Below, piece after piece: positions 5,424 through 50,606 of a DNA stretch of 52,610 nt; positions within the stretch are counted from its first letter, which is position 1; each line of letters begins with the position of its first letter. The notes beneath the pieces are model-generated. The model had not been told where the DNA came from. It did not search any database and saw only the letters and a program-made list of their open reading frames with translations. Origin of the DNA: Egibacteraceae bacterium (GTDB lineage: Bacteria > Actinomycetota > Nitriliruptoria > Euzebyales > Egibacteraceae); the NCBI GenBank assembly GCA_035513815.1, contig DATKBU010000104.1, positions 1-52,610 of the forward strand. The letters are read 5' to 3'. The position numbers and the translations under genes are program-made.

Positions 5424-6334
5424 CACTCGTCGCCAACGTCGCTCGAGCGCACGGCGTGCCCGCCGAACTGCTGGCGCAAGGCCGCGAGAAGCCGGTTGGA
5501 CAGCATGTCGGGCTGGCGGGACGCGAAGCGCGAGAACAGCGACAGGGCGATCGTCGGCGCTGGGACGCCGAGGTCGATGGCGCTCTCCACCGTCCAGCGA
5601 CCCTCGCCGGAGTCCTCGACGTAGCCGGACACGGCGTCCAGCCGAGGATCCTCGGCCAGCGCGCGGCCGGCAAGATCGAGCAGCCACGAGCGGACGACGC
5701 TGCCGTGGCGCCACAGCTCCGCGATCTGAGGAAGGTCAAGATCGAACCCGCTAGCGTCCAGCAGCTGAAAGCCCTCGCCGTAGGCCTGCATCATGGCGTA
5801 CTCGATGCCGTTGTGAACCATCTTGACGAAGTGGCCCGCGCCGGTCGCTCCCACGTGCGCGTAGCCGTCCGGCGGCGCCAGCGAGGCCAGGATCGGCTCT
5901 ATCCGCGCGAAGACCTCCCGATCGGCGCCGACCATCAGGCAGTAGCCCTCCTCCAGACCCCAGATCCCACCTGATGTCCCGGCGTCGACGAGGTTGATGC
6001 CGGACTCGGCGAGTTCGCCGGCGCGGGTCATCGTGTCGGTGAACCGGGAGTTGCCCCCGTCGATGATCGTGTCGCCCGGGCTCATCAGGTCCGCGAGCGA
6101 GGCGATCGTCTCCGCGGTGATCCCGCCCGCAGGCACCATCACCCACACGACGCGAGGCGCCTCAAGTGCAGCCACGACCGCCGCGAGCGAGTCGGCAGGC
6201 TCGGCGCCGAGCTCCACCGCGCGCTGCAGCGCCCCGCGGTCGATGTCGCTTGCAACGACCTCATGCCCTGTATTCAGGAGTCGCTGCGCCATGTTCGCGC
6301 CCATCCTGCCAAGCCCGACCAGACCGATGCGCAT
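5423..6334 (-). CDS. gnd: 6-phosphogluconate dehydrogenase, decarboxylating (short ~300-aa form)
   Basis: The start MRIGLVGLGRMGANMAQRL (Rossmann GxGxxG) at 6334 follows an AGGAG SD. Motifs GGNS, GTSGG, HFVKMVHNGIEYAMMQAY. Confidence 0.88.
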   Translation of the reverse strand: MRIGLVGLGRMGANMAQRLLNTGHEVVASDIDRGALQRAVELGAEPADSLAAVVAALEAPRVVWVMVPAGGITAETIASLADLMSPGDTIIDGGNSRFTDTMTRAGELAESGINLVDAGTSGGIWGLEEGYCLMVGADREVFARIEPILASLAPPDGYAHVGATGAGHFVKMVHNGIEYAMMQAYGEGFQLLDASGFDLDLPQIAELWRHGSVVRSWLLDLAGRALAEDPRLDAVSGYVEDSGEGRWTVESAIDLGVPAPTIALSLFSRFASRQPDMLSNRLLAALRQQFGGHAVRSSDVGDE

Positions 6335-6382
6335 CGCCGCTCCTGTTCTCTCCCGGAGCGGCTGTTCTACCTCACAAATGAG

Positions 6383-6414
6383 GACCGCCCGGACCACGAA
6401 TGGTCCGGGCGGTC
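6383..6414 (-). terminator. Perfect 14-bp GC-rich hairpin (GACCGCCCGGACCA / TGGTCCGGGCGGTC, 4-nt loop)
   Basis: Read directly from the sequence. On the minus strand it is followed by CCUCAUUUGUG, a weak U-tract. It lies about 50 nt upstream of the gnd start, so it could terminate an upstream minus-strand transcript or act as an attenuator. Confidence 0.4.
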
Positions 6415-6660
6415 GGCATCCTTCACCCGTCGTCTGGTCTCGTCCCCGGTCTGGCCCGCGAAAAGCGGGGCGCCGGGTGGGCGGGCGTGACCACCTCCCG
6501 CAGACGGTCCGAGCGGGCGATGAGGATGGTTTCGCTTCTGGCTCCGTGACTCCGGTCCGGATGCCACCTGTTGACCGGTGGGCCTTAGCGCCTCATCACC
6601 TCGACGGTCACGCAAGATCTATCAGAACTCATGCTCGGACCACCTCCTCTCTGTCGTTGC
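6415..6660 (-). ncRNA. Candidate structured RNA / 5' leader of the gnd-zwf-pgl operon (family unknown)
   Basis: It lies within a 387-bp non-coding gap in an otherwise tightly packed region. Nested helices: 6633-6641 pairs with 6506-6514 (9 bp), and 6591-6600 pairs with 6516-6525 (10 bp, with one G-U that only works on the minus-strand transcript). There is an internal hairpin and a duplicated GGAGGUGGUC element. See findings. Confidence 0.3.
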
Positions 6661-6721
6661 GCCAGCATGACACCGAGTCGCTCCTGCGGCAATGAATTGC
6701 CGCGGCCGGGATACTGGTGGC

Positions 6722-7657
6722 ATGACGCGTCTGATCACTCGGCTGGCCGTGCTCACGCGACCGGTCGGATTGGTGCGGGTGAGCGGCCCTGATCGCTTGA
6801 GCTACCTGCACACGCTGCTCAGCCAGCAGGTGGAAGGGCTGACGCCTGGCGCTGCAGCCGACTTCCTGTACCTGGACGCCAAGGGCAACCCGCTCGCCGC
6901 CGGGCGCCTGCTCGTCGGCCAGGAGGATGTTCTCTTGGCGGCGCCGTCTCCTGCGACGGCCGCGGATCTCGCCGCCGCGTTGGAGAAGTTCAAGTTCCTC
7001 CTCCAGGTGGACGCGTCCGACGTGAGCGACGAGCTGACCTTCGCGAGCATCCGCGGCCCAGGCGAGATCGACGTGCCCGGCGCGCCGCCCGCGGCGATGA
7101 CGTTCGCTGCCGACGGCTCCGGCCTTCTGGTGCGAGACCGCGGAGGGGGAGTCGATCTGATCGGCAGCGGCGAATGGGTCGCCGGCCGACTCGCCGAGCT
7201 CGCACTCCCCGAGGCGTCGCGCGAGGAATGGGAGGCCTGGAGGATCCTCGCCGGCGAGCCCGCCTGGGGCGCCGAGATCGCCCCGGGGCGGCGGGCGCAG
7301 GAGCTGGGGCTGCTGCCGACCCATGTGCACCTCCGCAAAGGCTGCTATCCGGGCCAGGAGTTGATCGCGAAGATCTACAACCTCGGGCGGCCGCGTCGTG
7401 CGCTCGCTGTCGTGGAGCTGGACGGCCCGGTCGCCCCCGGCGATCAGATCGAGGTCGGCGGCAAGGCGGGGGAGGTCACCAGCGCGGCTGCGACGGCCGA
7501 GCGCTGGGTCGCTCTCGCGCTGCTGCCGGTCGGTCCGGATGGCGAGGTGGGCGACAGCGCGGTGCGCGCGAACGGGCGGACCGGCCGCATCCTGCACCGT
7601 GTCGGCGAGGGATTTCCTCAGCCCGGTGCGCCGGCCCGGCGCTCACCGGACGGCTGA
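6722..7657 (+). CDS. ygfZ: Folate-binding YgfZ/GcvT-like protein (Fe-S cluster/tRNA modification associated)
   Basis: Start MTRLITRL at 6722. VRVSGPDRLSYLHTL, and the signature KGCYPGQE near the C-terminal third. Confidence 0.82.
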   Translation: MTRLITRLAVLTRPVGLVRVSGPDRLSYLHTLLSQQVEGLTPGAAADFLYLDAKGNPLAAGRLLVGQEDVLLAAPSPATAADLAAALEKFKFLLQVDASDVSDELTFASIRGPGEIDVPGAPPAAMTFAADGSGLLVRDRGGGVDLIGSGEWVAGRLAELALPEASREEWEAWRILAGEPAWGAEIAPGRRAQELGLLPTHVHLRKGCYPGQELIAKIYNLGRPRRALAVVELDGPVAPGDQIEVGGKAGEVTSAAATAERWVALALLPVGPDGEVGDSAVRANGRTGRILHRVGEGFPQPGAPARRSPDG

Positions 7658-22348: not shown

Positions 22349-23689
22349 ATGGAGCACGCAACGAACACCGAAGCTGGGCCGGCATTTGGCGCCCGGCGAC
22401 GCAATGGCCCGCGCGGCGCACGGCGAGCCCAGTCGAGGAGCGCTCGCGTCGCGCTGGTGGCTGTGCTTGCGCTGGCCCCCGCCGCCGTGACGATTCCCGA
22501 CGCGGGCGCCGATCACGGCGCTCAGGTCTATGGCACGGTCACTGCGCCCGATGGGACGGCAGTGGGCAGCGTGCGCGTCGGGACCGAGGCAGGCCCCACT
22601 GACACCAGTACGGAGACCTCCTCGGCCGGGGGCTACCGGCTCCATCCGCTGGCTCCCGGGTCGTATGCGATCGAGTTCGGCTCGCCGCTCGCGCAGTACG
22701 AGACGGCGACCGTCACCGTCTCGCTGGCGCAGATGGAGTCCAAGCTCCTCGATGTCGCCCTTCAGCCAGCCGCGCTGCCACTGAGCGTCGTCTCGGGCGC
22801 GACCCGTATCATGACCGCGGTGCAGGCGTCCCAGGCCGGGTTCCCGCAGGGGGCCGACACCGTGGTGATCGCTGCGGGCGGCACCTTCCCGGATGCGCTG
22901 GCGGCGGCGCCGCTCGCCGCGCAGAATGACGCCCCCCTCCTGCTCGTCGGCGATCGCAGCGGTCCCGAGGTCCTGGCTGAGGTCGGGCGCCTGGGCGCAG
23001 GCAAGGCCTTCATCGTGGGCGCCAGCGGCGCGGTCAGCGTGGTCGTCCAGTCCGAGCTAGAGCGCGCCGGCGTGGAAGTCGAGAGGATCGCCGGGGAGAA
23101 CCGGTTCGACACCGCCGCCCTGATCGCGCGCGAGGTCGGCGCGCCGCCCAGTGGGGAGGTGGCGGTGGCCTTCGGCGGCAACTTCCCTGACGCGCTCGCG
23201 ATGGCGCCGGTGGCTGCCGCGAACGGCATCCCGATCGTCCTCGCGGATACCGACTTGCCCAAGGACACGGCAGCCGCCCTGGCCGCGCTCGGCGCCACCC
23301 GCACGCTCGTCCTGGGGGGGCAGGCAGTGGTGAGCGACGCAGTCGTGCGCCAGCTTCCTGCGCCGCGGCGGATCTCTGGTCCGGAGCGCTATGCGACGGG
23401 CGTGGCGGTTGCCGAGGAGGGACTGCGCCGCGGGGGATCGCTCAGCACGGTCTACGTGGCGACGGGAGGGAACTTCCCCGACGCGCTGGCGGCCGGGCCG
23501 TTTGCCGCGCTGACGGCCAGCCCGGTGCTGCTCGTCGACGGCAGCGACGCCCGGGCGGCCGGCGTCGCCTACCAGTTCCTGGTCGACCATTTCGCCGAGA
23601 TCGATCGAATCGTAGTGCTCGGCGGTGACGGCGCGGTGTCCAGTCCGGTCCGCTCGAGGGTTCGCCGACCGGCGATGGCGCTGGAGTAG
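22349..23689 (+). CDS. Secreted cell-wall-binding (CWB2) repeat protein with N-terminal carboxypeptidase-regulatory-like beta domain
   Basis: Signal peptide ARVALVAVLALAPAAV. GTVTAPDGTAVGSVRV...GGYRLHPLAPGSYAIEF. Three CWB2 repeats (RIAGENRFDTAALIA...GGNFPDALAMAPVAAANGIPIVLA; RISGPERYATGVAVA...GGNFPDALAAGPFAALTASPVLLV). Confidence 0.72.
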   Translation: MEHATNTEAGPAFGARRRNGPRGARRAQSRSARVALVAVLALAPAAVTIPDAGADHGAQVYGTVTAPDGTAVGSVRVGTEAGPTDTSTETSSAGGYRLHPLAPGSYAIEFGSPLAQYETATVTVSLAQMESKLLDVALQPAALPLSVVSGATRIMTAVQASQAGFPQGADTVVIAAGGTFPDALAAAPLAAQNDAPLLLVGDRSGPEVLAEVGRLGAGKAFIVGASGAVSVVVQSELERAGVEVERIAGENRFDTAALIAREVGAPPSGEVAVAFGGNFPDALAMAPVAAANGIPIVLADTDLPKDTAAALAALGATRTLVLGGQAVVSDAVVRQLPAPRRISGPERYATGVAVAEEGLRRGGSLSTVYVATGGNFPDALAAGPFAALTASPVLLVDGSDARAAGVAYQFLVDHFAEIDRIVVLGGDGAVSSPVRSRVRRPAMALE

Positions 23690-23692
23690 CCG

Positions 23693-24223
23693 ATGGCCGA
23701 GTACGGGAACGTGAGTGCTCCGCTGCTGGCGGCGCTGTTCGCGTGGGCGGCGTTGGTCAAGGCCCGTCGCCCGGCGGCGACGGCAGGCAGCTTCTCTGCC
23801 CTTGGCCTGCCCGGCGCCCGCGGCCTGGCGTTCGCTGTCCCAGCTGCGGAGCTGATCATCGCCGCCGCCCTGCTGGTCCGCCCGACGCTCGGCGCAGCCA
23901 CGGCGCTGCTGGCGCTGGCGGCGTTCAGCGCGGTGCTCGGCTCGGCGCTGCGGCGCGGTGCGGCGGTGACGTGCGGGTGCTTCGGCGCCGCGGGCGCGAA
24001 CGCGGTGTCCAGCGGAGATCTGCTGCGCAACGCAGCGCTGGCGCTGCTCGCCGCGCCCGCCCTCGCGGTCTGGAAGCTTGCCGTGCCGACCCTTCCCGCC
24101 ATGGTTGGCGTCACAGGGGCCGCATCCGCAGCTGCTGTGGCGCTCGCGCTGCTGCGGCTGCGCCGGGAGACGGGTCGGCTGTGGGACAACGCGTTGGAAC
24201 CGGGTCCCGAGGGGGGGGTATGA
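23693..24223 (+). CDS. MauE/DoxX-family redox-associated membrane protein
   Basis: 176 aa with four to five TM helices. FAWAALVKARRP... and the CGCFG motif are typical of MauE. Confidence 0.75.
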   Translation: MAEYGNVSAPLLAALFAWAALVKARRPAATAGSFSALGLPGARGLAFAVPAAELIIAAALLVRPTLGAATALLALAAFSAVLGSALRRGAAVTCGCFGAAGANAVSSGDLLRNAALALLAAPALAVWKLAVPTLPAMVGVTGAASAAAVALALLRLRRETGRLWDNALEPGPEGGV

Positions 24224-24705
24224 GCGGCGGCGCGTGGATCGCCTCGTACGTGATCCTGTGGGTCGCGGTTGCCATGCTGTCGCTGGCGGTGATCGTCCTG
24301 CTGCGCCAGATCGGCGTCCTCCATGCGCGGATCCGCCCGATGGGAGTTCATTTCGCCAACGAGGGCCCGACGCGTGACGCGCCCGCGCCGTTGCCGCAGC
24401 ACTTCGACTTCGGCTCGCGGCGACTCACCCTGGTGACCTTCACCTCCGAGGGGTGCCGGATCTGCCAAGACCTCCTGCCGTCGATCCGCGCGCTGGAGCG
24501 GCAGTACGAGGACCTGGGCATCGACGTCGTATCGCTGGGTCCGGGCACGCAGGAAGTGTTCAACGCCTACAGCGTGCGCTCGACCCCCTATGTCGTGGGA
24601 GTCGACTCCGCTGGAGTCGTGCGAGGCGGCGGCGTCGCGAACACCCTTGAGCAGATCGAAGTGCTGGTGGAGTCGTGTCTTGAAGGAAGCTCGCAAGATG
24701 GCTGA
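24220..24705 (+). CDS. MauD-like membrane-anchored thioredoxin-fold protein (CRIC)
   Basis: ATGA overlap with the mauE-like gene. N-terminal TM followed by LLRQIGVLHARIRPMG (very MauD-like), then TFTSEGCRICQDLLP. Confidence 0.7.
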   Translation: MSGGAWIASYVILWVAVAMLSLAVIVLLRQIGVLHARIRPMGVHFANEGPTRDAPAPLPQHFDFGSRRLTLVTFTSEGCRICQDLLPSIRALERQYEDLGIDVVSLGPGTQEVFNAYSVRSTPYVVGVDSAGVVRGGGVANTLEQIEVLVESCLEGSSQDG

Positions 24706-26074
24706 CAGATCGATGGAGGCAACCGGGGCGACGGTGGACCAAGTCGCCGAGCGTCTCGGGAGGTGGGCGGCCGGGCGCACGACGCGCCGCAGCTTCCTGG
24801 GCCGGCTGGGACGACTGGCAGTCCTCGTCGCGGGCGGCTCGACCATGGCGACACTGCTGGCCGAGTCCGCGTCTGCGCGGGTCTGCGGACAGTCCGGGGT
24901 CTCCCCGAAGTGCGACACGTTCGACTGCGACGCCACATGGGGCTGGTGCTGGTACGCCTCCGGATGCTGCGCCGGCGGGCTGCTGAAGAAGATCTGCGAT
25001 TGCTGCGCCCCGAACACGCCCAACCCGGTCGGCTACTGCCCCAGCGGCACTCGGGTGCTGTGCATCCTGGAAAGCTGCGGGGCCGATCCGCGGCTGCAGA
25101 CTCGCGAGATCGTGCGGACCGACAGCGACGATCCGATCGACATCGCGGTTCGCATCAGCCAGCACCGGTTCCCGGGCCGATCGCCGATCGCGGTGCTCGG
25201 CGACGCCGAATCCGCCTTCCACGCCGCGGTCGCGGCGTCGCTGGGCCGCGTATCGGGCGGTCCGGTGCTGCTCACGGGCCGCGGCGCGCTGTCAGGGCCG
25301 GTGGCGGAAGAGCTGCGCCGGCTACGGGTGGAGTTCGTCAAGGTGGCGGGCTCGCAGTTGAGCGAGCACATCGACGAACAGCTGGCCCAGATGCGCATTT
25401 CGGTCGAGCGAGTCGGCGAGAGCGCCGACGCTGGGGACTTCTCAGCTGAAGTCGCGGAATGGAGCAGGGCGATGACCGGCGCCAGGACGGCCATCGTGGT
25501 GCTGCCAGGGACCGCGGGCGCCGGTGCGCTTGCCAGCGCGGCGGCGTGCGCAAACGCGGCGGCCCGGCCCCTGCTGATCGGCGGCGGCGAGCGCGTGATG
25601 CAGGCGCTGTCGACACCGCGGCGGGTCACGCGCACCTGGGTGCTGGGGGACAGCGAGAGCGACGCCGCTGCCTTCTTCGGAGGCCGGCCGCTGATCGAGG
25701 GCAACGCGGCGGCCCTTGCGCGCCTGCTCGCCGACACCGCGCGGGCCATGGGCGCCCCCCGCGAGGCGGTGGGGCTCGCGCCGCTGAAGTCCGGCATGGT
25801 CGCGGCGGCCATGGCCGCGCTGCCGGCGCCGCTGCTGTACCACGCTCCCGGCTCGATGGATGGCGCATTCGACTGGCTGCTGCGCAATCGTGACGGCCTG
25901 ACGGCGGCCTATCAAGGCGGCGGACCCGATGCCTTCGACACGCAGGCGTACTACGAGCTTCAGTCGGTCATCAACGAGTACGAAGTCCATCTGCTGCGCG
26001 GGGTCGCCGGTCAGGGCTTGCCGGTGATCCCCCAGCCGCATTCTGAGCGCCCAATCGGCAGAGCGAGGCGCTGA
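24698..26074 (+). CDS. Tat-exported MauA-leader-like, 12-Cys/Trp-rich module fused to three divergent CWB2-like repeats
   Basis: GAAGGAAG SD, then an ATG at 24698 overlapping the mauD-like stop by 8 nt. Leader VDQVAERLGRWAAGRTTRRSFLGRLG resembles the long Tat leader of methylamine dehydrogenase light chains. Residues 61-128 carry 12 Cys (ICDCC...CPSGT). The rest resembles CWB2 repeats. Confidence 0.65.
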   Translation: MADRSMEATGATVDQVAERLGRWAAGRTTRRSFLGRLGRLAVLVAGGSTMATLLAESASARVCGQSGVSPKCDTFDCDATWGWCWYASGCCAGGLLKKICDCCAPNTPNPVGYCPSGTRVLCILESCGADPRLQTREIVRTDSDDPIDIAVRISQHRFPGRSPIAVLGDAESAFHAAVAASLGRVSGGPVLLTGRGALSGPVAEELRRLRVEFVKVAGSQLSEHIDEQLAQMRISVERVGESADAGDFSAEVAEWSRAMTGARTAIVVLPGTAGAGALASAAACANAAARPLLIGGGERVMQALSTPRRVTRTWVLGDSESDAAAFFGGRPLIEGNAAALARLLADTARAMGAPREAVGLAPLKSGMVAAAMAALPAPLLYHAPGSMDGAFDWLLRNRDGLTAAYQGGGPDAFDTQAYYELQSVINEYEVHLLRGVAGQGLPVIPQPHSERPIGRARR

Positions 26075-26161
26075 GCCATGCTTGCGCTGGGGCTGACCGC
26101 CGCGGCGCTGGCCGCCGTTCGAACGCTGTGGTCGCCCTGAGGCCTGTCGATCACGGAGACC

Positions 26162-26719
26162 GTGACGCCTCCCGTGCGGGGGCGGGACAAGCTGATCGTG
26201 GCGGGCCTCATGCTCGCCGCCGCTGCGACGGCCGCGGGGCTGGCTGGATTCGCCGCTGGCGCGGCCTGGGAGATCGCCGGCCTGCCGCCGCTCGGCGCGC
26301 CCGGGTCTGCGGCCGTCGTCCTGATGGCGCTCGCCGCCGACGCCGCCTACAGCAGGCTCTCCAGACCGCGGCCTTGGTCTGTGGGGCGGCAGGTGCCCAG
26401 GGAATGGTCCAGGCTGTTCTCGGCTCGGACCGTCGCGGTCCTGTATGGCGCCAGGCTCGGGGTCGGCCCGCTGACGATCCTTCCGACCTGGCTGTGGTGG
26501 GCGGCCACGGCAGTCGGGGCTTCCGCCGGAGTGTGGCACTCGGTCGCGGTCGCGGTCGCGTTCGCGGCTGTCCGGGTGCTGGTGATGGTCGGCCTGGCGC
26601 AGCACATCGCGTCAGCAGCCGCACCTCGAATGGCGCGCATCATGGCCTCCGAGCCCCGCGCTCGCGCCAGTTGCGCCGCCGTCGGGACGCTGGTGTGCGC
26701 GGTCATGCTGATCTGGTGA
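26162..26719 (+). CDS. Hypothetical integral membrane protein
   Basis: 185 aa with a GTG start and four predicted TM helices. The upstream in-frame 20-codon ORF (26078-26140) ends at a TGA; see findings. Confidence 0.5.
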   Translation: MTPPVRGRDKLIVAGLMLAAAATAAGLAGFAAGAAWEIAGLPPLGAPGSAAVVLMALAADAAYSRLSRPRPWSVGRQVPREWSRLFSARTVAVLYGARLGVGPLTILPTWLWWAATAVGASAGVWHSVAVAVAFAAVRVLVMVGLAQHIASAAAPRMARIMASEPRARASCAAVGTLVCAVMLIW

Positions 26720-26729
26720 TCATGGCCGG

Positions 26730-27623
26730 ATGAGCGCTGCAGACGCCGAAGCCGCGGCGGACGCTCTCGTGGCCCGCGTCCAGGCGCGCCCGGGCGCCGT
26801 GCTCGTGCTCGGCGGCATCGACAGCGGCAAGACGACGCTGGCGACCCGCCTGCTCGGAGCGCTCGTCGACGCCGGTCTCGTGCCGGCCTACATCGATACC
26901 GACGTGGGCCAATCGACTACGGGGCCGCCGGCCACGGTCGGCTGGCGCCGTGTGGTCAGCCGCGCCGACCTGACGGACCTCTTCGAGGCCGACGGGCTGT
27001 ACTTCGTCGGCGACGTCACTCCTGCGACGCGCCTGCTGGCGACGCTGACCGGCGCCGCGCGGGCGCTGGAGGCATCGCGCGCGGTGTCCGGCGCGGCGGT
27101 GATCGATACGTCCGGCTTCGTGTCGGGAGTCACCGCCCAGACGCTGAAGTTTCACAAGATCGAGATCCTGCGACCGGATCACGTGGTGGCCCTTCAGCGC
27201 GGCGAGGAGCTCGAGCCGCTGCTCGCGGCGGTGCGCCGCTTCGGCTCGATTGAGACCACTCGCGTCCAGATCCATCCCGGGGTCGTGTCGAAAACCGCTG
27301 AGCAGCGCGCTGAGCGACGCTCCCGGCTGCTGCGGCGCTACTTCGCGCCGCCGCTGACCCGCTACCGGGTGCGCGCCGCCGCGTTCATGCCGACCCTGCC
27401 GCCGACACTTGACGCCTCCCGGCTTCACGGGCTGCTTGCGGGACTGGACGACGAGCAGGGGAACTGCATCGGCATCGGCGTTGTCGAGCATCGCGAGGCA
27501 GGGCTGCGCCTTGCCGCACGGACAGGCGTGATCCCCAGCGCGCTGCGCCTCGGCGCCGTCGCAGTCGATGATGACTGGACAACTCGAAGCATCGACCTTC
27601 GCTCGCTGCTCGGCAGCGGATAG
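26730..27623 (+). CDS. Clp1/Grc3-family P-loop protein (putative polynucleotide 5'-hydroxyl kinase)
   Basis: VLVLGGIDSGKTTLATRLL (Walker A), YIDTDVGQSTTGPPATVGW, YFVGDVTP, VIDTSGFVSG, and the C-terminal RAERRSRLLRRYF follow the Clp1 P-loop domain pattern. Confidence 0.68.
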   Translation: MSAADAEAAADALVARVQARPGAVLVLGGIDSGKTTLATRLLGALVDAGLVPAYIDTDVGQSTTGPPATVGWRRVVSRADLTDLFEADGLYFVGDVTPATRLLATLTGAARALEASRAVSGAAVIDTSGFVSGVTAQTLKFHKIEILRPDHVVALQRGEELEPLLAAVRRFGSIETTRVQIHPGVVSKTAEQRAERRSRLLRRYFAPPLTRYRVRAAAFMPTLPPTLDASRLHGLLAGLDDEQGNCIGIGVVEHREAGLRLAARTGVIPSALRLGAVAVDDDWTTRSIDLRSLLGSG

Positions 27624-27631
27624 GCGCGCCG

Positions 27632-28447
27632 TTGCGACCGATCATGTTTCTCTCCGACTTCGGGCTGGCGGATCCCTTTGTCGGCCTGTGCCACAGCGTG
27701 ATCGAGCGGATTGCGCCAGGCGCCAAGGTGATCGATCTGACGCACGGCATCGCGCCGCAGGCAATCCGTCACGGTGCCGCGACGCTGGCCGATTGCGTGG
27801 GGTGGCTGCCCCCCGGGGTGTGCCTCGCGGTTGTTGACCCCGGCGTCGGGACGGCCAGACGGGGGCTGATCGTGGTCGCCGGCGACCAGCTGCTGGTGGG
27901 GCCCGACAACGGACTGCTGTGGCCGGCGGCGCAGGTCCTCGGCGGTGTGAGCGGCGCGTGGGAGCTGCGAGCCGATCCGGCGGCGTCACCCACCTTCCAT
28001 GGGCGCGACGTCTTCGCGCCGGCCAGCGCGCGACTGGCTGCCGGCGGCGATCCGGAATCGCTGGGGATCGCGATGTCGACGGACGACCTGACCGAGCTGG
28101 CGCTGCCCGCGGCCAGGGTCTCGGCGGGCTTCATCGAGGCCGAAGTGCTCGCCGTGGATCGCTTCGGCAATCTGCAGCTGTGCGCGACGGGCGCGGATCT
28201 CAAGGCAGCCGGCTTCGCTCAGGGCCAGCAGATCCTCGTCACGGCCGGCGGCGGCGAGCATGTCGCCTCGGTGGTCGCGACGTTCGCCGGAGCCCCGCCG
28301 GCAAGCATCGTCGTGCTCGAGGATTCGCTGGGCCGAGCGGCCGTCGCCGTGAACGCCGGGGATGCGTCGAAGCGTCTGGGCGCCGCCCGGGAAGCGCCGG
28401 TGATCCTGCGGGCTACTGCTTCGCAGTCGGGAGCCGAACCGGGGTGA
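27632..28447 (+). CDS. S-adenosyl-L-methionine hydroxide adenosyltransferase family protein (DUF62)
   Basis: FLSDFGLADPFVGLCHSV, VVDPGVGTARR, GPDNGLL, FHGRDVFAPA. The start is either the TTG at 27632 or the ATG at 27644. Confidence 0.85.
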   Translation: MRPIMFLSDFGLADPFVGLCHSVIERIAPGAKVIDLTHGIAPQAIRHGAATLADCVGWLPPGVCLAVVDPGVGTARRGLIVVAGDQLLVGPDNGLLWPAAQVLGGVSGAWELRADPAASPTFHGRDVFAPASARLAAGGDPESLGIAMSTDDLTELALPAARVSAGFIEAEVLAVDRFGNLQLCATGADLKAAGFAQGQQILVTAGGGEHVASVVATFAGAPPASIVVLEDSLGRAAVAVNAGDASKRLGAAREAPVILRATASQSGAEPG

Positions 28448-44781: not shown

Positions 44782-45564
44782 GTGGCCAGGCTCCCGTCTC
44801 TCCGCCCTCCGGCGCCCGACGAGCTCAAAAAGCGGGTCCAGGACAACGTCATCTGGAAGTCGATCTTCCGGCCGGGTTCGATCTATCGGAAGGGCTATCG
44901 CGACACGTCCCGTGATCGGGCGCTGGCCGCGATGAACAATGTGCTGTACCACCTGCACCCGGTGAAGGTGAAGCGCCACGGCCTCAAGCTGACCTACACC
45001 TACTGCCTGGGAGGGCTGAGCTTCTTTCTGTTCATCCTCCTGACCGTCACGGGCATCTTCCTGATGTTCTTCTACCGGCCTGCCGCGGGCGCCGGCGCCG
45101 AGCACGCCTACCTGGACATGGTCCGCCTCCGGGACACGGTCGTGTTCGGCGATTTCGTGAGGAACATGCATCGCTGGGCCGCCCACTTGATGGTGTTCAC
45201 CGTGTTCCTGCACATGGCGCGCGTCTTCTATCACGGCGCCTACAAGCCCCCGCGCGAGTTCAACTGGGTTGTCGGCGTGATCCTGCTGTTGCTGACGCTC
45301 CTGCTCGCTTTCAGCGGGTATCTGCTCCCATGGGATCAGCTGGCGCTGTGGGCCTTCACCGTCGGCACTGCGATGGCCGGGTTCACGCCCGTGTTCGGGC
45401 GAGAGGTCTCGTTCGTGCTGCTCGGGGGCGTGGAGATCGGCCCCGAGACGCTGCTGCGCTGGTACGTGCTGCATGTGCTCGCCCTGCCGTTCATCCTCAC
45501 CATCTTCCTTGCTGTCCACTTCTGGAGGATTCGCAAGGACGGCGGCATCTCCGGCCCGCTGTAG
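44782..45564 (+). CDS. Cytochrome b6-type protein (N-terminal half of cytochrome b)
   Basis: YCLGG (the position of the haem ci Cys). Helix B is HRWAAHLMVFTVFLH (His-13-His). Helix D is HVLALPFILTIFLAVH (His-14-His, b6/Firmicutes-type spacing). The ORF ends after helix D. Confidence 0.85.
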   Translation: MARLPSLRPPAPDELKKRVQDNVIWKSIFRPGSIYRKGYRDTSRDRALAAMNNVLYHLHPVKVKRHGLKLTYTYCLGGLSFFLFILLTVTGIFLMFFYRPAAGAGAEHAYLDMVRLRDTVVFGDFVRNMHRWAAHLMVFTVFLHMARVFYHGAYKPPREFNWVVGVILLLLTLLLAFSGYLLPWDQLALWAFTVGTAMAGFTPVFGREVSFVLLGGVEIGPETLLRWYVLHVLALPFILTIFLAVHFWRIRKDGGISGPL

Positions 45565-45596
45565 CCGCGGCAGCAGGCTGATATAAGGAGCGCGTC

Positions 45597-46442
45597 ATGG
45601 CCGAAGAAGTTGAGATGGACCAGAAGGTCTACGACGAGCTGATCGCTGCGGGCAAGAGCGAGCGGATCGCACGGGCGAAGGCGAAGGCGGCGGCGGTTCG
45701 GGCCAAGAAGGCCGCAGCAGGCGAGACGCTCGGGCCGCGCGAGGCGTCAGCCGCAGAGGACCGCCCCACCGCGGCCGCCGAGGGCGGCGGCGAGACCGTC
45801 GCAGGCGGGGGGGTCGCCACCAAGGAGCGCACTGGCGGCGGCGCGCTGACACCGGAGGAGCGGCAGGCCAGGGTGGCCGCGGCGCTCAAGGAGCGCGGCA
45901 ACGGCGAGGCCGCCGGATCCGCGGAGACGAAGCTCGCCGGTCAGGCGCACACGCACCGCCTGCTCGCGATGGTTCCTCCCACGGGGATCCAGCAGATCCG
46001 CGGCAAGCAGGAGGACAAGGTCTACACCTGGCCGCACCTCCTCGGCGCTGAGCTCATCGCCCTGCTGAGCCTGATGGCCTTTCTCACGCTGTTCTCGGCC
46101 GTGGTGCCCGCGCCACTGCAGCCACTCGCGAACCCGAACGTCACGCCCAACCCGTCCAAGGCCCCTTGGTACTTCCTGGGACTCCAGGAGCTCCTGCGCT
46201 TCTTCCACCCGATGGTGGCCGGCGTGATCATCCCCGGCGTCGTCGGCCTGCTCGGCCTCATGGCGATCCCGTACGTGGACAAGAATCCGTCAGTTCGCCC
46301 GGAGAACCGCAAGACGGCATACACGCTTTTCACCTTCTTCATGCTCGGATCCGGGATCCTGACGCTGATCGGTTCGCTGTTCCGCGGACCCGGCCAGAAC
46401 TGGGTGTGGCCGTGGGTCGACGGCATCTGGTTCACCTTGTAG
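45597..46442 (+). CDS. Cytochrome b C-terminal half / subunit IV-like protein with ~130-aa Ala/Lys/Glu-rich N-extension
   Basis: AAGGAG SD. VYTWPHLL..., then PNPSKAPWYFLGLQELL (counterpart of the PEWY loop), then two more TM helices. Confidence 0.78.
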   Translation: MAEEVEMDQKVYDELIAAGKSERIARAKAKAAAVRAKKAAAGETLGPREASAAEDRPTAAAEGGGETVAGGGVATKERTGGGALTPEERQARVAAALKERGNGEAAGSAETKLAGQAHTHRLLAMVPPTGIQQIRGKQEDKVYTWPHLLGAELIALLSLMAFLTLFSAVVPAPLQPLANPNVTPNPSKAPWYFLGLQELLRFFHPMVAGVIIPGVVGLLGLMAIPYVDKNPSVRPENRKTAYTLFTFFMLGSGILTLIGSLFRGPGQNWVWPWVDGIWFTL

Positions 46443-46454
46443 ACAGGCCTGCGA

Positions 46455-47276
46455 GTGATATCGATGACAACGATGATTCTCGGATTCGCGGCAGTTGCCG
46501 CGGCGCTGACGGCGGTCGCGTGGTGGATCCGCCGGGAGAATCTGGCGGTCTACCCCGTCGGGCGCAGCCCGCGTGAGCTGCGCCCCCTGCCAGCAGGCTG
46601 CGACCTCGGCGCGCAGCTGATGGCCGCTGCCGACGTGGGGAAGGATTCGTCGGGCTCCGCTGGGTCTGCAGGCGGCGCTGCCGCGTCTGAGCCTGCCCCG
46701 GCGAAGCCCACGAAGCAGCGGCGCAAGCCCTTCAGCCCAGACCGACGCGCGTTTCTCAGGAACAGCTGGCTGTTCGGGTGGCTTGGAACGCTGGCCGGCT
46801 TTGGGGGAGCGTCGATCGCGTTCCTGTGGCCGGACGCCGCGGGCGGCTTCGGCGCCCGGATACGAGTCGGCCCGCCAGAGGACGTGCTCAGCGCCATCCG
46901 CGAGGCCCAGGCGCCGTTCGCGTTCCCGGCGGGGCGCATGTACATCGTCGAGTACGATCCCGCGCTCGACCCCGACGGCCAGTACGAGGAGATCACCGGC
47001 GGCAGCAACCTCATGGCGCTGTATCAGAAGTGCGTGCACCTTGGCTGCAAGGTTCCCTGGTGCCAGACCTCGCAGTGGTTCGAGTGCCCGTGCCACGGCT
47101 CGCGCTACAACCGCTGGGGAGAGTGGAAGGACGGGCCTGCGCCGCGCGGGCTGGACCGGTTCCCGATCACGGTCGAGCAAGGCGAGGTCTTCGTCAACAC
47201 CGGCGATCTGCGGACCGGCCCGTCGCGCCAGGCGGTGGTGCTAGACCAGGAGCGGGAAGGCCCCAGCTGCCTGTAG
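46455..47276 (+). CDS. Rieske [2Fe-2S] subunit
   Basis: CVHLGC ... CPCHGSRY boxes. An internal twin-arginine motif (SPDRRAFLRNSW) follows a first TM helix, as in actinobacterial QcrA. Confidence 0.85.
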   Translation: MISMTTMILGFAAVAAALTAVAWWIRRENLAVYPVGRSPRELRPLPAGCDLGAQLMAAADVGKDSSGSAGSAGGAAASEPAPAKPTKQRRKPFSPDRRAFLRNSWLFGWLGTLAGFGGASIAFLWPDAAGGFGARIRVGPPEDVLSAIREAQAPFAFPAGRMYIVEYDPALDPDGQYEEITGGSNLMALYQKCVHLGCKVPWCQTSQWFECPCHGSRYNRWGEWKDGPAPRGLDRFPITVEQGEVFVNTGDLRTGPSRQAVVLDQEREGPSCL

Positions 47277-47312
47277 GTCCCAGGCGCTTCGAGCAGGAGA
47301 AGGATCACACTA

Positions 47313-48386
47313 GTGACCACCACAGGAGCAGCGGTTCTCGTTCTCGCCCTCGCGGCGGTGGCGGTCATCGCCTATCTGATCGTCAGCGCGGGCCGCGGCC
47401 GGCGCCTGCGCGAAGACATCCCCCCGGGCATGCGCCCGGCTTACTCCGACGAGCAGCTCGAGCGCAGCGTGATCGAGCGCTACATGGCCTGGGGGCTGGT
47501 GCTGACGCTGTTCTTCGCCGTGTTCCTGCCGGTGTACGGAATCGCCGAGGCGCGCAGGATCCAGGGCCAGCGGGAGGGCATGTTCGTCGCCACCGTGGAG
47601 CGCGGTGCTGTGGCGTACGGGCAGTACTGCGCGCTGTGCCACGCGGCGGACCTCAGCGGAGGGTCCACCGCTTCTCCCTATCGCGCGGTCGACGATGGCG
47701 ACGCAACGGCGGACGAGGGCGAGGAAGCGGCCGGCGAAGACGCCGCGCCCGCTGCGCCGGATCAATGGCCGGTGCCGGCGCTGAACGACATCGTGGCCCG
47801 GTATGAGGGCAGCGACGTCATCACCGATGTCGAGGATCTTGTCCGGACGACGATCACGCGCGGCCGGCCGGGGACGCCGATGCCCACCTGGGGATCGCAG
47901 TTCGATGGCCCGCTGAATGACCAGGAGATCGAGGACATCGTCCGCTTCATCCTGGACAACCAGATTGATGAGGTGGCCGAGGCCACGTCGGCTTCGGACC
48001 TCTCCGGCCAGGAGCTGTTCATCCAGAACTGCGCCCAGTGCCATGGCGCCGAGCTCCAGGGCGAGGTTGGGCCGACTCTGGTGGGAGTCTTCGAGCGCCA
48101 CGGGCGCGACACCGTGCTGGGCATCGTGCGCAACGGGATCTACGTCGGGGCCGCGCCGATGATGCCGCCGTGGCAGAACGGCTACCTCTACCCCGAGGCG
48201 CGCTACACCGATGAGGCGCTGGAGCGGATCGTGGACTATCTCGCTGAGCAGCAGCCCGCGACGATCCCCGAGCGGCTGCGCGGATATCAGGGGCCTGGAA
48301 TGACGCTTGAGGAGCGGCAGCCGCAAGCGGACAGCACCGAGCCGGCGCAGGAGGCGGCCGCCGCAGGCCGCCGCGCGGCCGGTTGA
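47313..48386 (+). CDS. Membrane-anchored dihaem c-type cytochrome
   Basis: Two CxxCH motifs (CALCHAA, CAQCHGA), two N-terminal TM helices, and a GCAGGAGAAGGA SD. Confidence 0.8.
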   Translation: MTTTGAAVLVLALAAVAVIAYLIVSAGRGRRLREDIPPGMRPAYSDEQLERSVIERYMAWGLVLTLFFAVFLPVYGIAEARRIQGQREGMFVATVERGAVAYGQYCALCHAADLSGGSTASPYRAVDDGDATADEGEEAAGEDAAPAAPDQWPVPALNDIVARYEGSDVITDVEDLVRTTITRGRPGTPMPTWGSQFDGPLNDQEIEDIVRFILDNQIDEVAEATSASDLSGQELFIQNCAQCHGAELQGEVGPTLVGVFERHGRDTVLGIVRNGIYVGAAPMMPPWQNGYLYPEARYTDEALERIVDYLAEQQPATIPERLRGYQGPGMTLEERQPQADSTEPAQEAAAAGRRAAG

Positions 48387-48403
48387 CACGAGGAGCTTGG
48401 GTC

Positions 48404-49243
48404 ATGTCGCTGGATCTGCTGGGACTGGTGCTACTCGCTGTTGAGGAGGCCAGCCACGAATGGGTCCCCCCGTGGGACTGGCGCGCGCAGGTCGCGCTGC
48501 CGGCAGGGCTGCTGATCTTCTTCGGCAGCGTTTTCCTGCTGCTGCGATCCAACCTGGGCGCTCGACGCGCCTACCTGGTGGAGGCGACGTCGTTCTTCGG
48601 ATTCATGATCATCCTGGCGCTGTTCTGGACCTTCGGGGCGCCGGGCACGCCGATCGCGACCGGTCCTATCACCTTGCCCGGCCAGCCGCTGGACGCCTAC
48701 CAGCCGACGTGGACGCCGTTCGCGGGCGACAGCGTCATTGCCGAGGACGAGCGGTTCGTCACCGCGAAAACGTTCCCGGAGGGCTGGACCGAGGTGCCCG
48801 ACGCGTTCGCCGCCCAAGCCGACACCGGAGTCCAGGAGATCCAGTCGTTCTTCGGCGAGCAGGAGGCCGGCAGCCGCATCCCGGCCACCTGGGTTCCCGT
48901 CGGGGACACCGTGCGGTACCGCGAGGCGACCAACGGGTTCCCGATGATCTCGGCGGAGTTCAAGGAGTCCTATCAGCCCAACGCCGACGGCAGCCTTCCC
49001 GAAGGCGTATCCGAGACCCAGATCGGCCAGCCGATCCCCGACGGCGCCACGTTCCGTGCCTTCGCTTTCTTCGACGCCGGCAACATCCAGTTCCCCAGCA
49101 TCGTGATGCTGGCGGTCATGACCGTCGCCTTCCTGATCCACCTGGCGCTGCTGGCCCTCGACGAGCGCCGCGAGCAGCGTGAGCTGGCGGAAGATGCGGC
49201 GCACGTCGCCGAGGAGCGCGAGCGCGTTTCCGCCGAGGCCTAG
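48404..49243 (+). CDS. Hypothetical membrane protein (3 N-terminal TM, ~170-aa extracytoplasmic domain, C-terminal TM)
   Basis: The ATG at 48404 follows GAGGAG (the track start at 48383 is TTG). It immediately follows the cytochrome c gene. I recognise no family. Confidence 0.5.
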   Translation: MSLDLLGLVLLAVEEASHEWVPPWDWRAQVALPAGLLIFFGSVFLLLRSNLGARRAYLVEATSFFGFMIILALFWTFGAPGTPIATGPITLPGQPLDAYQPTWTPFAGDSVIAEDERFVTAKTFPEGWTEVPDAFAAQADTGVQEIQSFFGEQEAGSRIPATWVPVGDTVRYREATNGFPMISAEFKESYQPNADGSLPEGVSETQIGQPIPDGATFRAFAFFDAGNIQFPSIVMLAVMTVAFLIHLALLALDERREQRELAEDAAHVAEERERVSAEA

Positions 49244-49313
49244 CGTTCCTGCAGCGGCCTCGGGGCTGGGCTGGCCCCGCCTGCGGCGAACGCCCGCGCC
49301 GGCGGACCTTACT

Positions 49314-49844
49314 ATGGCTGGAATGCGCGAAGCCCTGGTCCTGCTCTTGCTCGCGCTCACGGCGTGTGTGAGCGACACCGCTGCGGCGGGCGTGGTGATC
49401 CCCCCGGCCGAGCGCGAGCCTGCCCCCGACGTGGCGGGCGTGACGCTTCAAGGTGACCAGCTGGCACTGGAGGATCTCGACGGCGTCGTCCTGGTCAACT
49501 TCTGGGCCTCATGGTGCGGTCCGTGCGTCGCCGAGGTGCCCCATCTGTCGGCGGTCGCCACCGAGTTCGCCGATGAAGGCGTGCACGTGCTCGGCGTGAA
49601 CATCAAAGACCAGCGCGCGAACGCTGTCGCGTTCGAGGCCGAGCACCGCGTGACCTACCCCTCGCTGCATGACGAGGCGGCGGTCGTCGCCGCGTCGTTC
49701 GGCGCCATCGGGCCGGCAGGGCTTCCCTCGACGATCATTCTCGACGCCGATCACAACGTGGCGGTCCGCCTGTTCGGCGCGGTCACCGCCCGCCAGCTGG
49801 TCCCGTACCTGCAGGATCTCCTGGCCGAGCCAGAGGCCGGCTAG
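49314..49844 (+). CDS. TlpA/ResA-family thiol:disulfide oxidoreductase, probable lipoprotein
   Basis: MAGMREALVLLLLALTAC (lipobox-like). LVNFWASWCGPCVAEVP. Paralogue of the gene at 43098-43763. Confidence 0.8.
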   Translation: MAGMREALVLLLLALTACVSDTAAAGVVIPPAEREPAPDVAGVTLQGDQLALEDLDGVVLVNFWASWCGPCVAEVPHLSAVATEFADEGVHVLGVNIKDQRANAVAFEAEHRVTYPSLHDEAAVVAASFGAIGPAGLPSTIILDADHNVAVRLFGAVTARQLVPYLQDLLAEPEAG

Positions 49845-50600
49845 ATGCAGGTCAGCGAGCTCATCACTAGCGCCAACCTCCTGGTCGCCGCTGCGGTGGC
49901 GTTCGCGGCCGGGCTGGTGTCGTTCGCGTCGCCCTGCGTCGTACCGCTGGTGCCCGGCTATCTGTCGTATATGACGGGCCTGTCCAGCGCAGAGCTCGCG
50001 GCCGGCGCTCGAACCGGTCGCGCGCGGGTCCTCGGCGGCGGCTTGCTGTTCACGCTCGGATTCGCGATCCCGATCACGCTGCTGGGCGTTGTGGGCGGGG
50101 CGCTGAACTTCATGCTGATGGACCGCGGCTGGCAGATCGCGATGGGCGCCGTCGTCGCGGTGATGGGGCTGGCCTTCACCGGACTGCTGCCGTTCGACAT
50201 CCTCGGGCGTGAGCGCCGGTTCAGCGACACGGCCATCGACCGGGGGGTCCTGGGCGCGCTTCCGCTCGGATTCATCTTCGGAGTCGGATGGACGCCATGC
50301 ATCGGCCCGGCGCTCGCTGCGATCCTCGCGCTGGCGGCCGGCGCGAGCGGCGGCCCGTCTCGCGGCGCGGCCCTGGCGTTCATCTACGCCCTGGGACTGG
50401 GCCTGCCGTTCATCGTGATGGGTCTGGCCTTTCACCGGGCAGAGCGCGCCTTCGGCTTTCTGCGGCGCAACGCGCGCGCGGTGCAGATCCTCGGCGGGCT
50501 GATGCTCACGGTGGTCGGGGTGCTGGTCGCGACGGGCTTCTGGACCCAGCTCATCCAGCGGCTGCAGCCGGTCATCGGCGGCTTTGAGACGGTGCTGTAA
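49845..50600 (+). CDS. ccdA: Cytochrome c biogenesis protein CcdA (DsbD-like transmembrane reductant transporter)
   Basis: [17 protein letters not shown] and WTPCIGP are the two conserved Cys-containing helices. Confidence 0.87.
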
Positions 50601-50606
50601 GCCGCG

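Follow-up and report, generated by a model that had tools for sequence, protein, structure and literature searches.

The contig DATKBU010000104.1 of an Egibacteraceae bacterium (assembly GCA_035513815.1; 52,610 nt, referred to below as the window) contains a cassette of four genes, which encode homologues of the proteins MauE and MauD of methylamine utilization (genes 2 and 3), a cysteine-rich exported protein with a cell-wall-binding region (gene 4) and a homologue of MauF (gene 5). The cassette is probably a thiol/selenol redox maturation system dedicated to one substrate, the wall-anchored, disulfide-knotted domain encoded by gene 4. It represents the light-chain accessory subset of the mau clusters attached to a different substrate, and it is not a methylamine dehydrogenase (MADH) system. 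Gene 5 is apparently a selenoprotein gene, in which the in-frame TGA at 26138-26140 is read as selenocysteine (Sec). A dedicated maturation system had already been proposed from the letters of this locus (the original prediction). The proposal fits the data, since the genes are strictly linked and no mauB or mauG lies nearby, but MauF has to be added to the system and gene 1, which precedes mauE, has to be dropped from it.

Organization and conservation of the gene cassette

Five co-directional open reading frames (ORFs), genes 1 to 5, fill the region 22349-26719 of the window, the G+C content of which is about 71%. Genes 1 and 2 are separated by a 3-nt gap (23689/23693), genes 2 and 3 overlap by ATGA (24220-24223), and genes 3 and 4 overlap by 8 nt (24698-24705). 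The frame of gene 5 opens with an ATG at 26078, 3 nt past the stop codon of gene 4, and runs for 20 codons before it meets the TGA at 26138-26140; the mechanically called ORF starts at the GTG at 26162. The tight packing described earlier for all five genes therefore holds for the first three junctions, but the last gap of 3 nt is conditional on read-through of a stop codon that had gone unmentioned. A scan for promoters and terminators returned nothing, which is uninformative in DNA of 71% G+C.

The proteins encoded by the five genes were searched with tblastn against 84 loci. Wherever a contig is long enough, genes 2 to 5 follow one another directly and in the same order; gene 3 was detected in 80 and gene 5 in 79 of the 84 loci. 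The expectation that the mauE-mauD-gene 4 triad is kept as a unit in relatives was borne out in essentially all loci with enough flanking sequence, and so was the E-D-A order, the homologues being arranged as mauE, mauD and gene 4. The conserved unit is the four-gene operon mauE-mauD-gene 4-mauF and not the set of five genes, because gene 1 recurs only in the closest loci and the outer flanks differ. The view of a core framed by gene 1 was thus not sustained, as this gene is a lineage-specific neighbour outside the conserved unit.

The four-gene unit occurs mostly in Acidimicrobiia and Nitriliruptoria. A scan of species representatives revealed relatives of gene 4 in 113 species genomes, nearly all of which belong to Acidimicrobiia, Euzebyales or Egibacteraceae. 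Full-length relatives number in the hundreds, are all annotated as hypothetical and come from Euzebyales, Egibacteraceae, Acidimicrobiales and unclassified Actinomycetota. The arrangement mauE-mauD-module-mauF(UGA) is shared by short stand-alone versions of the gene 4 module of about 125 aa. In two such systems (L085 2896-5342 and L086 327-2977) the leader is followed by HHxCGHTGT... and the module contains 12-13 cysteines. In both, mauE and mauD are separated by an additional ORF of 58-99 aa, and the MauF homologue contains the same UGA. In the locus of a cultured strain, Egibacter rhizosphaerae (CP036402, L001), an IS110-family transposase gene in the opposite orientation (6048-7283) is located between mauE and mauD and splits the operon.

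The MauE and MauD homologues

The product of gene 2 matches the MauE family PF07291 at 2.8e-21, with 76.6 bits against a gathering threshold of 27. Inspection of its translation revealed the CGCFG motif, a lysine in the first transmembrane helix (TM1) and a glutamate in the second (TM2); of 87 loci, 63 encode the CxCFG motif. The product of gene 3 matches the MauD model TIGR02661 at 4.7e-21 with 75.1 bits, which is under the equivalog cut-off of 188.6. It aligns over its full length with Paracoccus denitrificans MauD (BLASTP 3e-25, 31% identity, residues 7-152 on 6-180), and in the alignment of the family the LRQxGxLHxR-type anchor motif and the cysteines of MauD are invariant. The CxxC motif is found in 77 of 87 loci. 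By Pfam the protein is TlpA/ResA-like rather than DsbA-like. The earlier assignments of gene 2 to the MauE family and of gene 3 to MauD-like, membrane-anchored thioredoxins are thus confirmed, the latter in the sense that gene 3 encodes a MauD homologue and not an equivalog.

In E. coli, MauE can take the place of DsbB by means of its CXC motif, and quinone binding has been predicted for it; the DsbB-like activity was demonstrated with two homologues that come from other phyla, MauD is taken to be the DsbA-like partner of MauE, and MauA is found in just 10.2% of MauE-bearing species (Gonzalez et al., bioRxiv 10.64898/2026.03.05.709764). In view of this low share, the presence of MauE and MauD without MADH is not unusual in itself.

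Gene 4 encodes a wall-binding protein with a MauA-type leader and a 12-Cys module

The product of gene 4 comprises 458 aa and consists of a leader, a cysteine-rich module, a triad of CWB2 repeats and a tail (Table 1). It was analyzed in alignments of 29-67 relatives. The protein matches TIGR02659 at 1.6e-5 (24.9 bits against a cut-off of 196.85), as do 26 of 29 relatives, and has no Pfam match. The N-terminal profile of the family finds the PDB entry 3c75_L at 1.2e-6, which is the sole entry whose sequence includes a MADH light-chain leader. A hidden Markov model of the leader alone scores 29.5 bits against the leader of Paracoccus versutus MauA, a value reached by none of 1000 shuffles, whereas the mature part scores 7.5 bits against MauA, which was reached by 8 of 1000 shuffles. 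With P. denitrificans MauA, hhalign gives a probability of 95% (4e-8). In the alignment of the profile with 3c75_L, MauA Trp57 is opposite Ile123 of gene 4, and the alignment ends at MauA Cys61, with the region of Trp108 missing.

The MADH light-chain family PF02975 matches none of the 29 relatives. A Foldseek search of the PDB with an AlphaFold2 (AF2) model of the module alone (predicted local distance difference test, pLDDT, 77.6) returned nothing better than E = 3.4 and no MADH chain, although this negative is weak evidence, as small disulfide-rich folds are hard for Foldseek. In a phmmer search of the PDB with the mature module, just chance matches to spider toxins were obtained. The likeness of gene 4 to MauA is real but narrow: it resides mainly in the leader, and the module is only weakly similar to the N-terminal half of MauA. 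Of the MauA-like character assigned to gene 4 in the original prediction, the leader stood and the module hardly did. The module lacks both tryptophans of tryptophan tryptophylquinone (TTQ). A TTQ-type cross-linked cofactor is unsupported and would not be expected, given the failure of PF02975, the absence of a MADH fold match, the isoleucine in place of Trp57 and the missing Trp108 region.

The module itself is a beta-rich domain of about 70 residues. All of its 12 cysteines are invariant in 67 relatives, together with conserved D, E, K, W and Y residues, and ferredoxin-type CxxCxxC spacing is not present. It is modelled with a pLDDT of 91-96 within the full-length AF2 model of gene 4, which has an overall pLDDT of 90 and a predicted TM-score (pTM) of 0.84. 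Among 1.84 billion representatives, the module profile finds 54 clusters at E <= 0.001 and 40 at <= 1e-10. Almost all of these are proteins of about 450-540 aa with the same architecture, and a few are stand-alone proteins of about 125 aa whose leader is of the same type. The profile also matches long repetitive proteins of 588-3309 aa (P0150, P0156, P0157, P0160, P0166), each of them in 7-17 stretches. Such proteins could be remote relatives of the module or Cys-rich repeat proteins unrelated to it.

The C-terminal triad of CWB2-like repeats had been correctly recognized. The family profile of this region matches the Clostridioides difficile proteins Cwp6 (6.6e-19) and Cwp8 (8.6e-15) in the PDB, and Foldseek retrieves Cwp6, Cwp8 and the high-molecular-weight (HMW) chains of SlpA at E = 8.5e-14 to 7.6e-8, with Cwp6 at 8.5e-14. 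The SlpA HMW chains superpose at a root-mean-square deviation of 3.5-4 A over about 350-380 columns. PF04122 does not match gene 4 of the window alone but matches 8 of 29 relatives. In the tail, residues Q422, N426, L433, G435, G438, G440, L441, P442, Q446 and P447 do not vary among 67 sequences. The tail is nearly as conserved as the Cys module, and the relatives from Acidimicrobiia add a further YWTGR motif.

Gene 5 encodes a MauF homologue

Gene 5 has no match in the domain libraries, and MauF is not represented by a model in Pfam or NCBIfam. Gene callers report only its 185-aa part from the GTG at 26162. Likewise, all 108 public gene calls of gene 5 relatives begin after the TGA; they are N-terminally truncated and annotated as hypothetical. 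The proteins of the mau cluster of P. denitrificans PD1222 (mauRFBEDACJG...) were run by tblastn against the window and 86 related loci. MauD matches 82 loci and MauE 55, and MauF matches the position of gene 5 in 17 loci, with 2e-11 as the best value. In profile comparisons the gene 5 family matches MauF with a probability of 93.9% when the ORF is taken as called. For the read-through version hhalign gives 97.7% (1.7e-12, 169 colinear columns), with the U written as C, which slightly favours that single column. The family shares the motifs WSPCG and QVP...LYGxxLG...T with three MauF proteins. By these matches gene 5 is a MauF homologue, and the statement that mauF is absent from the locus was therefore wrong. 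A relationship of MauF to CcdA/DsbD was considered and rejected (hhalign 9.5% probability, resemblance in the SPC motif alone), and CcdA serves below as an analogy. The gene 5 family profile has no sequence match in the PDB. About half of the relatives with the UGA (L002 9589-10713; P0192, P0218, P0223 and others) possess an extra C-terminal extension of about 190 residues without a Pfam match; their called lengths are about 310-375 aa.

The other missing partners had been named correctly. MauB, MauG, MauJ, MauM and MauN gave no tblastn match in the window or in the 86 related loci. Amicyanin (MauC) is likewise not matched in the window, and among the related loci it has a single weak match (L010, 3.2e-6, 26% identity).

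The in-frame TGA is apparently read as selenocysteine

The TGA is kept in all 83 loci that contain the site, corresponding to 80 distinct sequences, and the stand-alone systems L085 and L086 are among them. Its context is conserved: a start codon is followed by a hydrophobic helix of about 20 residues ending in (R/H)(S/T)LWSP, the TGA, and G(L/R)SV(A/T)ET..PSVRG. The genuine MauF proteins of Paracoccus, Methylobacterium and Indioceanicola read GGLLSTWSPCGYSS at this position, and the cysteine aligned with the TGA is the only invariant cysteine of these three proteins (WSPCG). Around the TGA the first and second codon positions are largely conserved and the third positions vary (GGC/GGG/GGT/GGA, TCG/TCC/TCA, ACC/ACG/ACA). 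The same third-position wobble with conserved amino acids is seen in codons +1 to +7 after the TGA. The first possible restart codon (ATG, GTG or TTG) is located anywhere from codon 2 to codon 54, and none is fixed. Because of this coding conservation and the lack of a fixed restart, the codons directly 3' of the TGA must be translated and are reachable only through it. Gene 4 terminates with a TGA at 26072-26074, 64 nt upstream of the in-frame TGA. As TGA is an ordinary stop codon for gene 4, site-specific recoding and not a variant genetic code is implied.

A hairpin resembling a selenocysteine insertion sequence (SECIS) lies 3' of the TGA. Alignment columns 30-36 pair with columns 40-46, and 86.6% of the cells are paired. 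Compensatory changes are evident at pair 30-46 (GC, CG, UA, GU, AU, UG) and at pair 33-43 (CG 63, GC 9, UG 4, UA 2), and pair 34-42 (UG 37, UA 30, CG 12) has zero mismatch. In the loop a G is near-invariant and a U invariant. The covariation score of 0.261 was reached by none of 500 shuffles (0.154), and slid controls gave at most 0.132. L085 and L086 retain the hairpin while coding for different amino acids there. A weaker first hairpin is located between the UGA and the SECIS-like hairpin; 70.4% of its cells are paired, changes on both sides occur at pairs 15-27 and 18-24, and it is seen in the minimum-free-energy fold of the window.

In one relative (L035 5735-8160), selA (PF03841, 3.9e-94), a selD-like gene of the AIRS family and the gene for tRNA-Sec (selC) follow directly, within 2-4 kb 3' of the cassette. 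This gene order suggests physical linkage of the selenoprotein gene with the Sec machinery. A SelB-like match in L025 covers the EF-Tu-type GTPase domain alone and is ambiguous. The Sec trait has been reported in Acidimicrobiia by a recent preprint. The invariant TGA, its alignment with a cysteine, the coding sequence downstream, the covarying hairpin and the Sec genes beside one relative are the reasons for reading gene 5 as a selenoprotein gene.

Proposed function of the cassette

We propose that the gene 4 product would be exported by the twin-arginine translocation (Tat) pathway, after which quinone-linked MauE, together with MauD, would form the six disulfides of the module and shuffle them. 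The cassette may also proof-read these disulfides. The CWB2 triad would tether the product to a wall polymer, and the leader common to MauA and gene 4 may be the handle that commits the substrate to the machinery. MauF would act as a third redox component through its single Sec or Cys, and the selenocysteine marks what is probably its catalytic residue. Most plausibly, MauF would serve as a relay to MauD or as an arm for reduction or isomerisation, MauE being the oxidant, in analogy to CcdA feeding ResA. This role is favoured because both MauF motifs (WSP-U-G and RQVP) are placed near the cytoplasmic face by the positive-inside rule and because MauD is TlpA/ResA-like. More generally, we lean towards the view that MauF is a redox enzyme with a catalytic Cys that was upgraded to Sec in Acidimicrobiia and Nitriliruptoria, and that it forms with MauE and MauD a portable, leader-addressed machine of three components, which serves MauA in methylotrophs and the wall-anchored 12-Cys domain here.

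Several points weigh against this proposal. The steps assigned to the cassette in these organisms are derived from sequences and models. The disulfides of the module are presumed, and Tat export together with 12 cysteines would suit a metal or cluster site as well. A relationship of MauF to CcdA was detected neither by hhalign nor as a sequence match in the PDB. MauE alone replaces DsbB in E. coli, and MauF is therefore not generally required for oxidation. As for selenocysteine, the 52.6-kb window yielded neither Sec machinery nor a tRNA gene, the SECIS models of Rfam do not match 25900-26500, and the hairpin region of the window is thermodynamically not unusual (z = -0.68). The GU loop is located about 33 nt after the UGA, which is farther than in E. 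coli fdhF.

MauE and MauD might form a general DsbB/DsbA-type system, to which gene 4 would be an unrelated neighbour and not a dedicated substrate. Such an arrangement would agree with the reported generalist nature of MauE, with the rarity of MauA among MauE-bearing species and with the variation of gene 1 and the outer flanks among lineages. It is nevertheless unlikely, since gene 4 and the MauF homologue stay with mauE-mauD in about 80 loci despite differing flanks, and since the rare module was found in the context of a mauE cassette in five of five inspected loci (L001, L002, L004, L085, L086). Moreover, gene 4 bears the leader n-region specific to MauA, and MauA is the one other client known for MauE, MauD and MauF. 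The presence of these three proteins, the TIGR02659 matches and a module with 12 cysteines, the number also present in MauA, would also suit a split methylamine or amine dehydrogenase, in which gene 4 encodes a true TTQ light chain and the heavy chain and MauG are encoded elsewhere. This is extremely improbable: PF02975 and Foldseek give no MADH match, Trp57 is replaced, the half of MauA with Trp108 and four partner cysteines is missing, MauB and MauG are found neither in the window nor in the 86 loci, and the module is fused to a CWB2 triad. It is also highly improbable that the invariant WGWCWY core bears a new cross-link or cofactor.

Tat is the typical export route of proteins that contain a cofactor, and its use here would be explained if the module bound a metal or an Fe-S-type cofactor loaded in the cytoplasm, with the Mau proteins protecting or repairing its thiols. 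The 12 invariant cysteines with their conserved D, E, K, W and Y residues, the TlpA/ResA-like MauD and a Sec-containing MauF, which would suit reductive chemistry, are compatible with this idea. We consider it very unlikely, because MauA, the only characterised relative, forms six disulfides from its 12 cysteines, MauE is an oxidase and the module lacks ferredoxin-type spacing. An equally low probability is given to the possibility that the TGA at 26138 is a true stop codon between two cistrons, one for a membrane peptide of 20 aa and the other for a 185-aa protein reinitiated at GTG 26162, with a ribosome-binding site between them. A GGAG does lie 5 nt before this GTG in the window, all public gene calls begin past the TGA, and the Rfam SECIS families do not match. 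However, codons +1 to +3 (G, L/R, S) are conserved with synonymous third positions and precede any possible start in nearly all loci, and the first start codons after the TGA are scattered. Further, both parts are one polypeptide with Cys at the TGA position in genuine MauF, the 3' hairpin covaries, and selA, the selD-like gene and selC adjoin the cassette in L035. The dedicated redox maturation system with a selenocysteine-containing MauF is therefore the explanation that we prefer.

Comparison with known systems

In comparison with the mau clusters of Paracoccus and Methylobacterium (mauFBEDACJG...), homologues of mauF, mauE and mauD and the MauA-type leader are all found in the cassette. 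In contrast to these clusters, the cassette has no MauB, MauG, MauJ, MauM or MauN, the window has no amicyanin, and mauF stands behind the substrate gene and not at the head of the cluster. The gene 5 product lacks the first ~58 residues of MauF, and UGA replaces the codon of Cys79. The gene 4 product is weakly similar to the N-terminal half of MauA, lacks the TTQ tryptophans and is fused to CWB2 repeats. The 12 cysteines of MauA form six disulfides. Mutants in mauF, mauE or mauD reportedly lack the light chain, as is said of the work of Chistoserdov et al. in 1994 and of van der Palen et al. in 1997. According to this genetics of the 1990s, MauF is said to be required for methylamine dehydrogenase, and to our knowledge no mechanism has been assigned to it.

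The cassette MauE shares with the generalist MauE proteins the CXC followed by F-G, the TM1 lysine, the TM2 glutamate, a thioredoxin-like partner encoded next to it and the absence of MADH. Unlike them, it is locked in an operon with one Cys-rich client and an apparent MauF selenoprotein; neither MauF nor a dedicated non-MADH client is discussed in the MauE paper (bioRxiv 10.64898/2026.03.05.709764). The nearest published parallel is provided by the candidate clusters for peptides made by the ribosome and modified after translation (RiPPs) that decRiPPter identified in Streptomyces, which combine mauE/mauD with precursors of at least 8 cysteines in genomes reported to lack other mau orthologues (PMC7794033). 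In both cases actinobacterial mauE/mauD adjoin the gene of a Cys-rich secreted product, and the stand-alone modules of L085 and L086, about 125 aa long, look conceptually similar to the decRiPPter precursors. Gene 4, in contrast, encodes a 458-aa wall-binding protein and not a small peptide, and the precursors and the module are likened here by description. Neither MauF nor selenocysteine nor a Tat leader of the MauA type is reported in the decRiPPter paper.

As in bacterial selenoproteins of the thiol-oxidoreductase type (DsbA-like, thioredoxin-like and AhpD-like, among others), a single UGA occupies a conserved redox-type Cys position in gene 5, a 3' stem-loop with a GU loop is present, and Cys orthologues exist in other phyla. 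The gene 5 product differs from them as a polytopic membrane protein without a second conserved cysteine. The use of a CWB2 triad as a wall anchor with an appended functional domain is shared with C. difficile Cwp6, Cwp8 and SlpA HMW. Gene 4 is distinguished from these proteins by an identity of 14-19%, a host from Actinomycetota, Tat export and the appended 12-Cys module.

Measured against the literature found, a conserved non-MADH client with a MauA-type leader and a MauF that travels with MauE and MauD outside mau clusters are new, and so, apparently, is MauF as a selenoprotein. A MauF with selenocysteine was not found in this literature, which for the searchable selenoprotein surveys includes the main text. 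The natural exchange of Cys for Sec at the only invariant cysteine of MauF is strong comparative evidence for redox chemistry at this position. The mauF, mauE and mauD genes together with the unusual MauA leader emerge as a self-contained module that is separable from MADH, which refines the new picture of MauE as an analogue of DsbB. The public gene calls of the MauF-Sec protein that are truncated at the UGA number more than 100. The client, a wall-tethered domain with 12 cysteines, is very strongly conserved and occurs in widespread Actinomycetota of soil and aquatic habitats.

Neighbouring genes

Table 1. Features of the four-gene cassette, gene 1 and the respiratory cluster in the window
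Feature	Position	Strand	Remarks
Gene 1, secreted protein, CarboxypepD_reg-like domain and 3 CWB2 repeats	22349..23689	+	alternative start 22301
Gene 2, MauE, predicted DsbB-like membrane thiol oxidase	23693..24223	+	CGCFG motif; PF07291
Gene 3, MauD homologue, membrane anchor (LLRQIGVLHARxxPxG) then thioredoxin fold with CRIC	24220..24705	+	TIGR02661, BLASTP
Gene 4 residues 1-60, MauA-type extended twin-arginine leader	24698..24877	+	VERxxRWxAxRxTRRSFLGR...AxA; cleavage predicted before RVCGQ
Gene 4 residues 61-132, 12-Cys module	24878..25093	+	RVCGQSG...WGWCWY...LKKICDCC...GYCPSG...ESCGxDPR, near-invariant
Gene 4 residues ~137-415, triad of divergent CWB2 repeats	25106..25942	+	profile vs PDB, Foldseek
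Gene 4 residues 416-458, C-terminal tail and TGA stop	25943..26074	+	YYELQSxxNxFExHLLxGxxGQGLPVIxQPxxERPIGxAR
Gene 5, MauF homologue by sequence comparison, 213 codons including one in-frame UGA	26078..26719	+	tblastn, hhalign
In-frame TGA, predicted selenocysteine, LWSP-U-GLS	26138..26140	+	corresponds to MauF Cys79 (TWSPCG)
Weaker first hairpin UCACGG-AGA-CCGUGA	26151..26165	+	between UGA and SECIS-like hairpin
SECIS-like hairpin GCCUCC-CGUGC-GGGGGC, GU in loop	26167..26183	+	27-43 nt after UGA; covariation
Split cytochrome b	44782-45564 and 45597-46442	+	
Rieske protein	46455-47276	+	
Di-haem cytochrome c, QcrC-type	47313-48386	+	only one in window
ORF without Pfam match	48383-49243	+	in cluster
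ResA-like thioredoxin	49179-49844	+	
CcdA	49845-50600	+	
ResB	50607-52229	+	

The product of gene 1 had been described as a secreted protein with a carboxypeptidase-regulatory-like domain and three CWB2 repeats, and this description holds (PF13620, 5.1e-8; PF04122, 1.9e-49 in three stretches). A homologue of gene 1 lies 5' of mauE in L001 and L005-L007, which are loci of the Nitriliruptoria type, and in no others apart from a weaker match in L023. Gene 1 was rejected as a component of the system, as unrelated secreted proteins occupy its position in other lineages. The gene upstream of mauE encodes a secreted protein with DUF4214 repeats in about 32 loci. In about 16 loci it encodes a secreted protein with GYWLV..DGG.F.FGDA repeats, which has no Pfam match and may be propeller-like. 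Examples drawn from the two types together are L002 6157-7008, L004 5614-6807, L013 3941-5005 and L028 3333-4322.

The outer flanks of the cassette vary among the loci and consist of unrelated housekeeping genes in the window. Immediately 3' of the cassette, the window contains a gene for a P-loop kinase of the CLP1_P type (26730-27623) and a SAM hydroxide adenosyltransferase gene (27632-28447); neither neighbour was seen in the gene lists of L001, L002 and L004. A respiratory and cytochrome c biogenesis cluster (bc-complex/ResABC) is located at 44782-52229 on the forward strand. Its di-haem protein was considered as a candidate for MauG and rejected, as it is a QcrC-type cytochrome c and does not belong to CCP_MauG.

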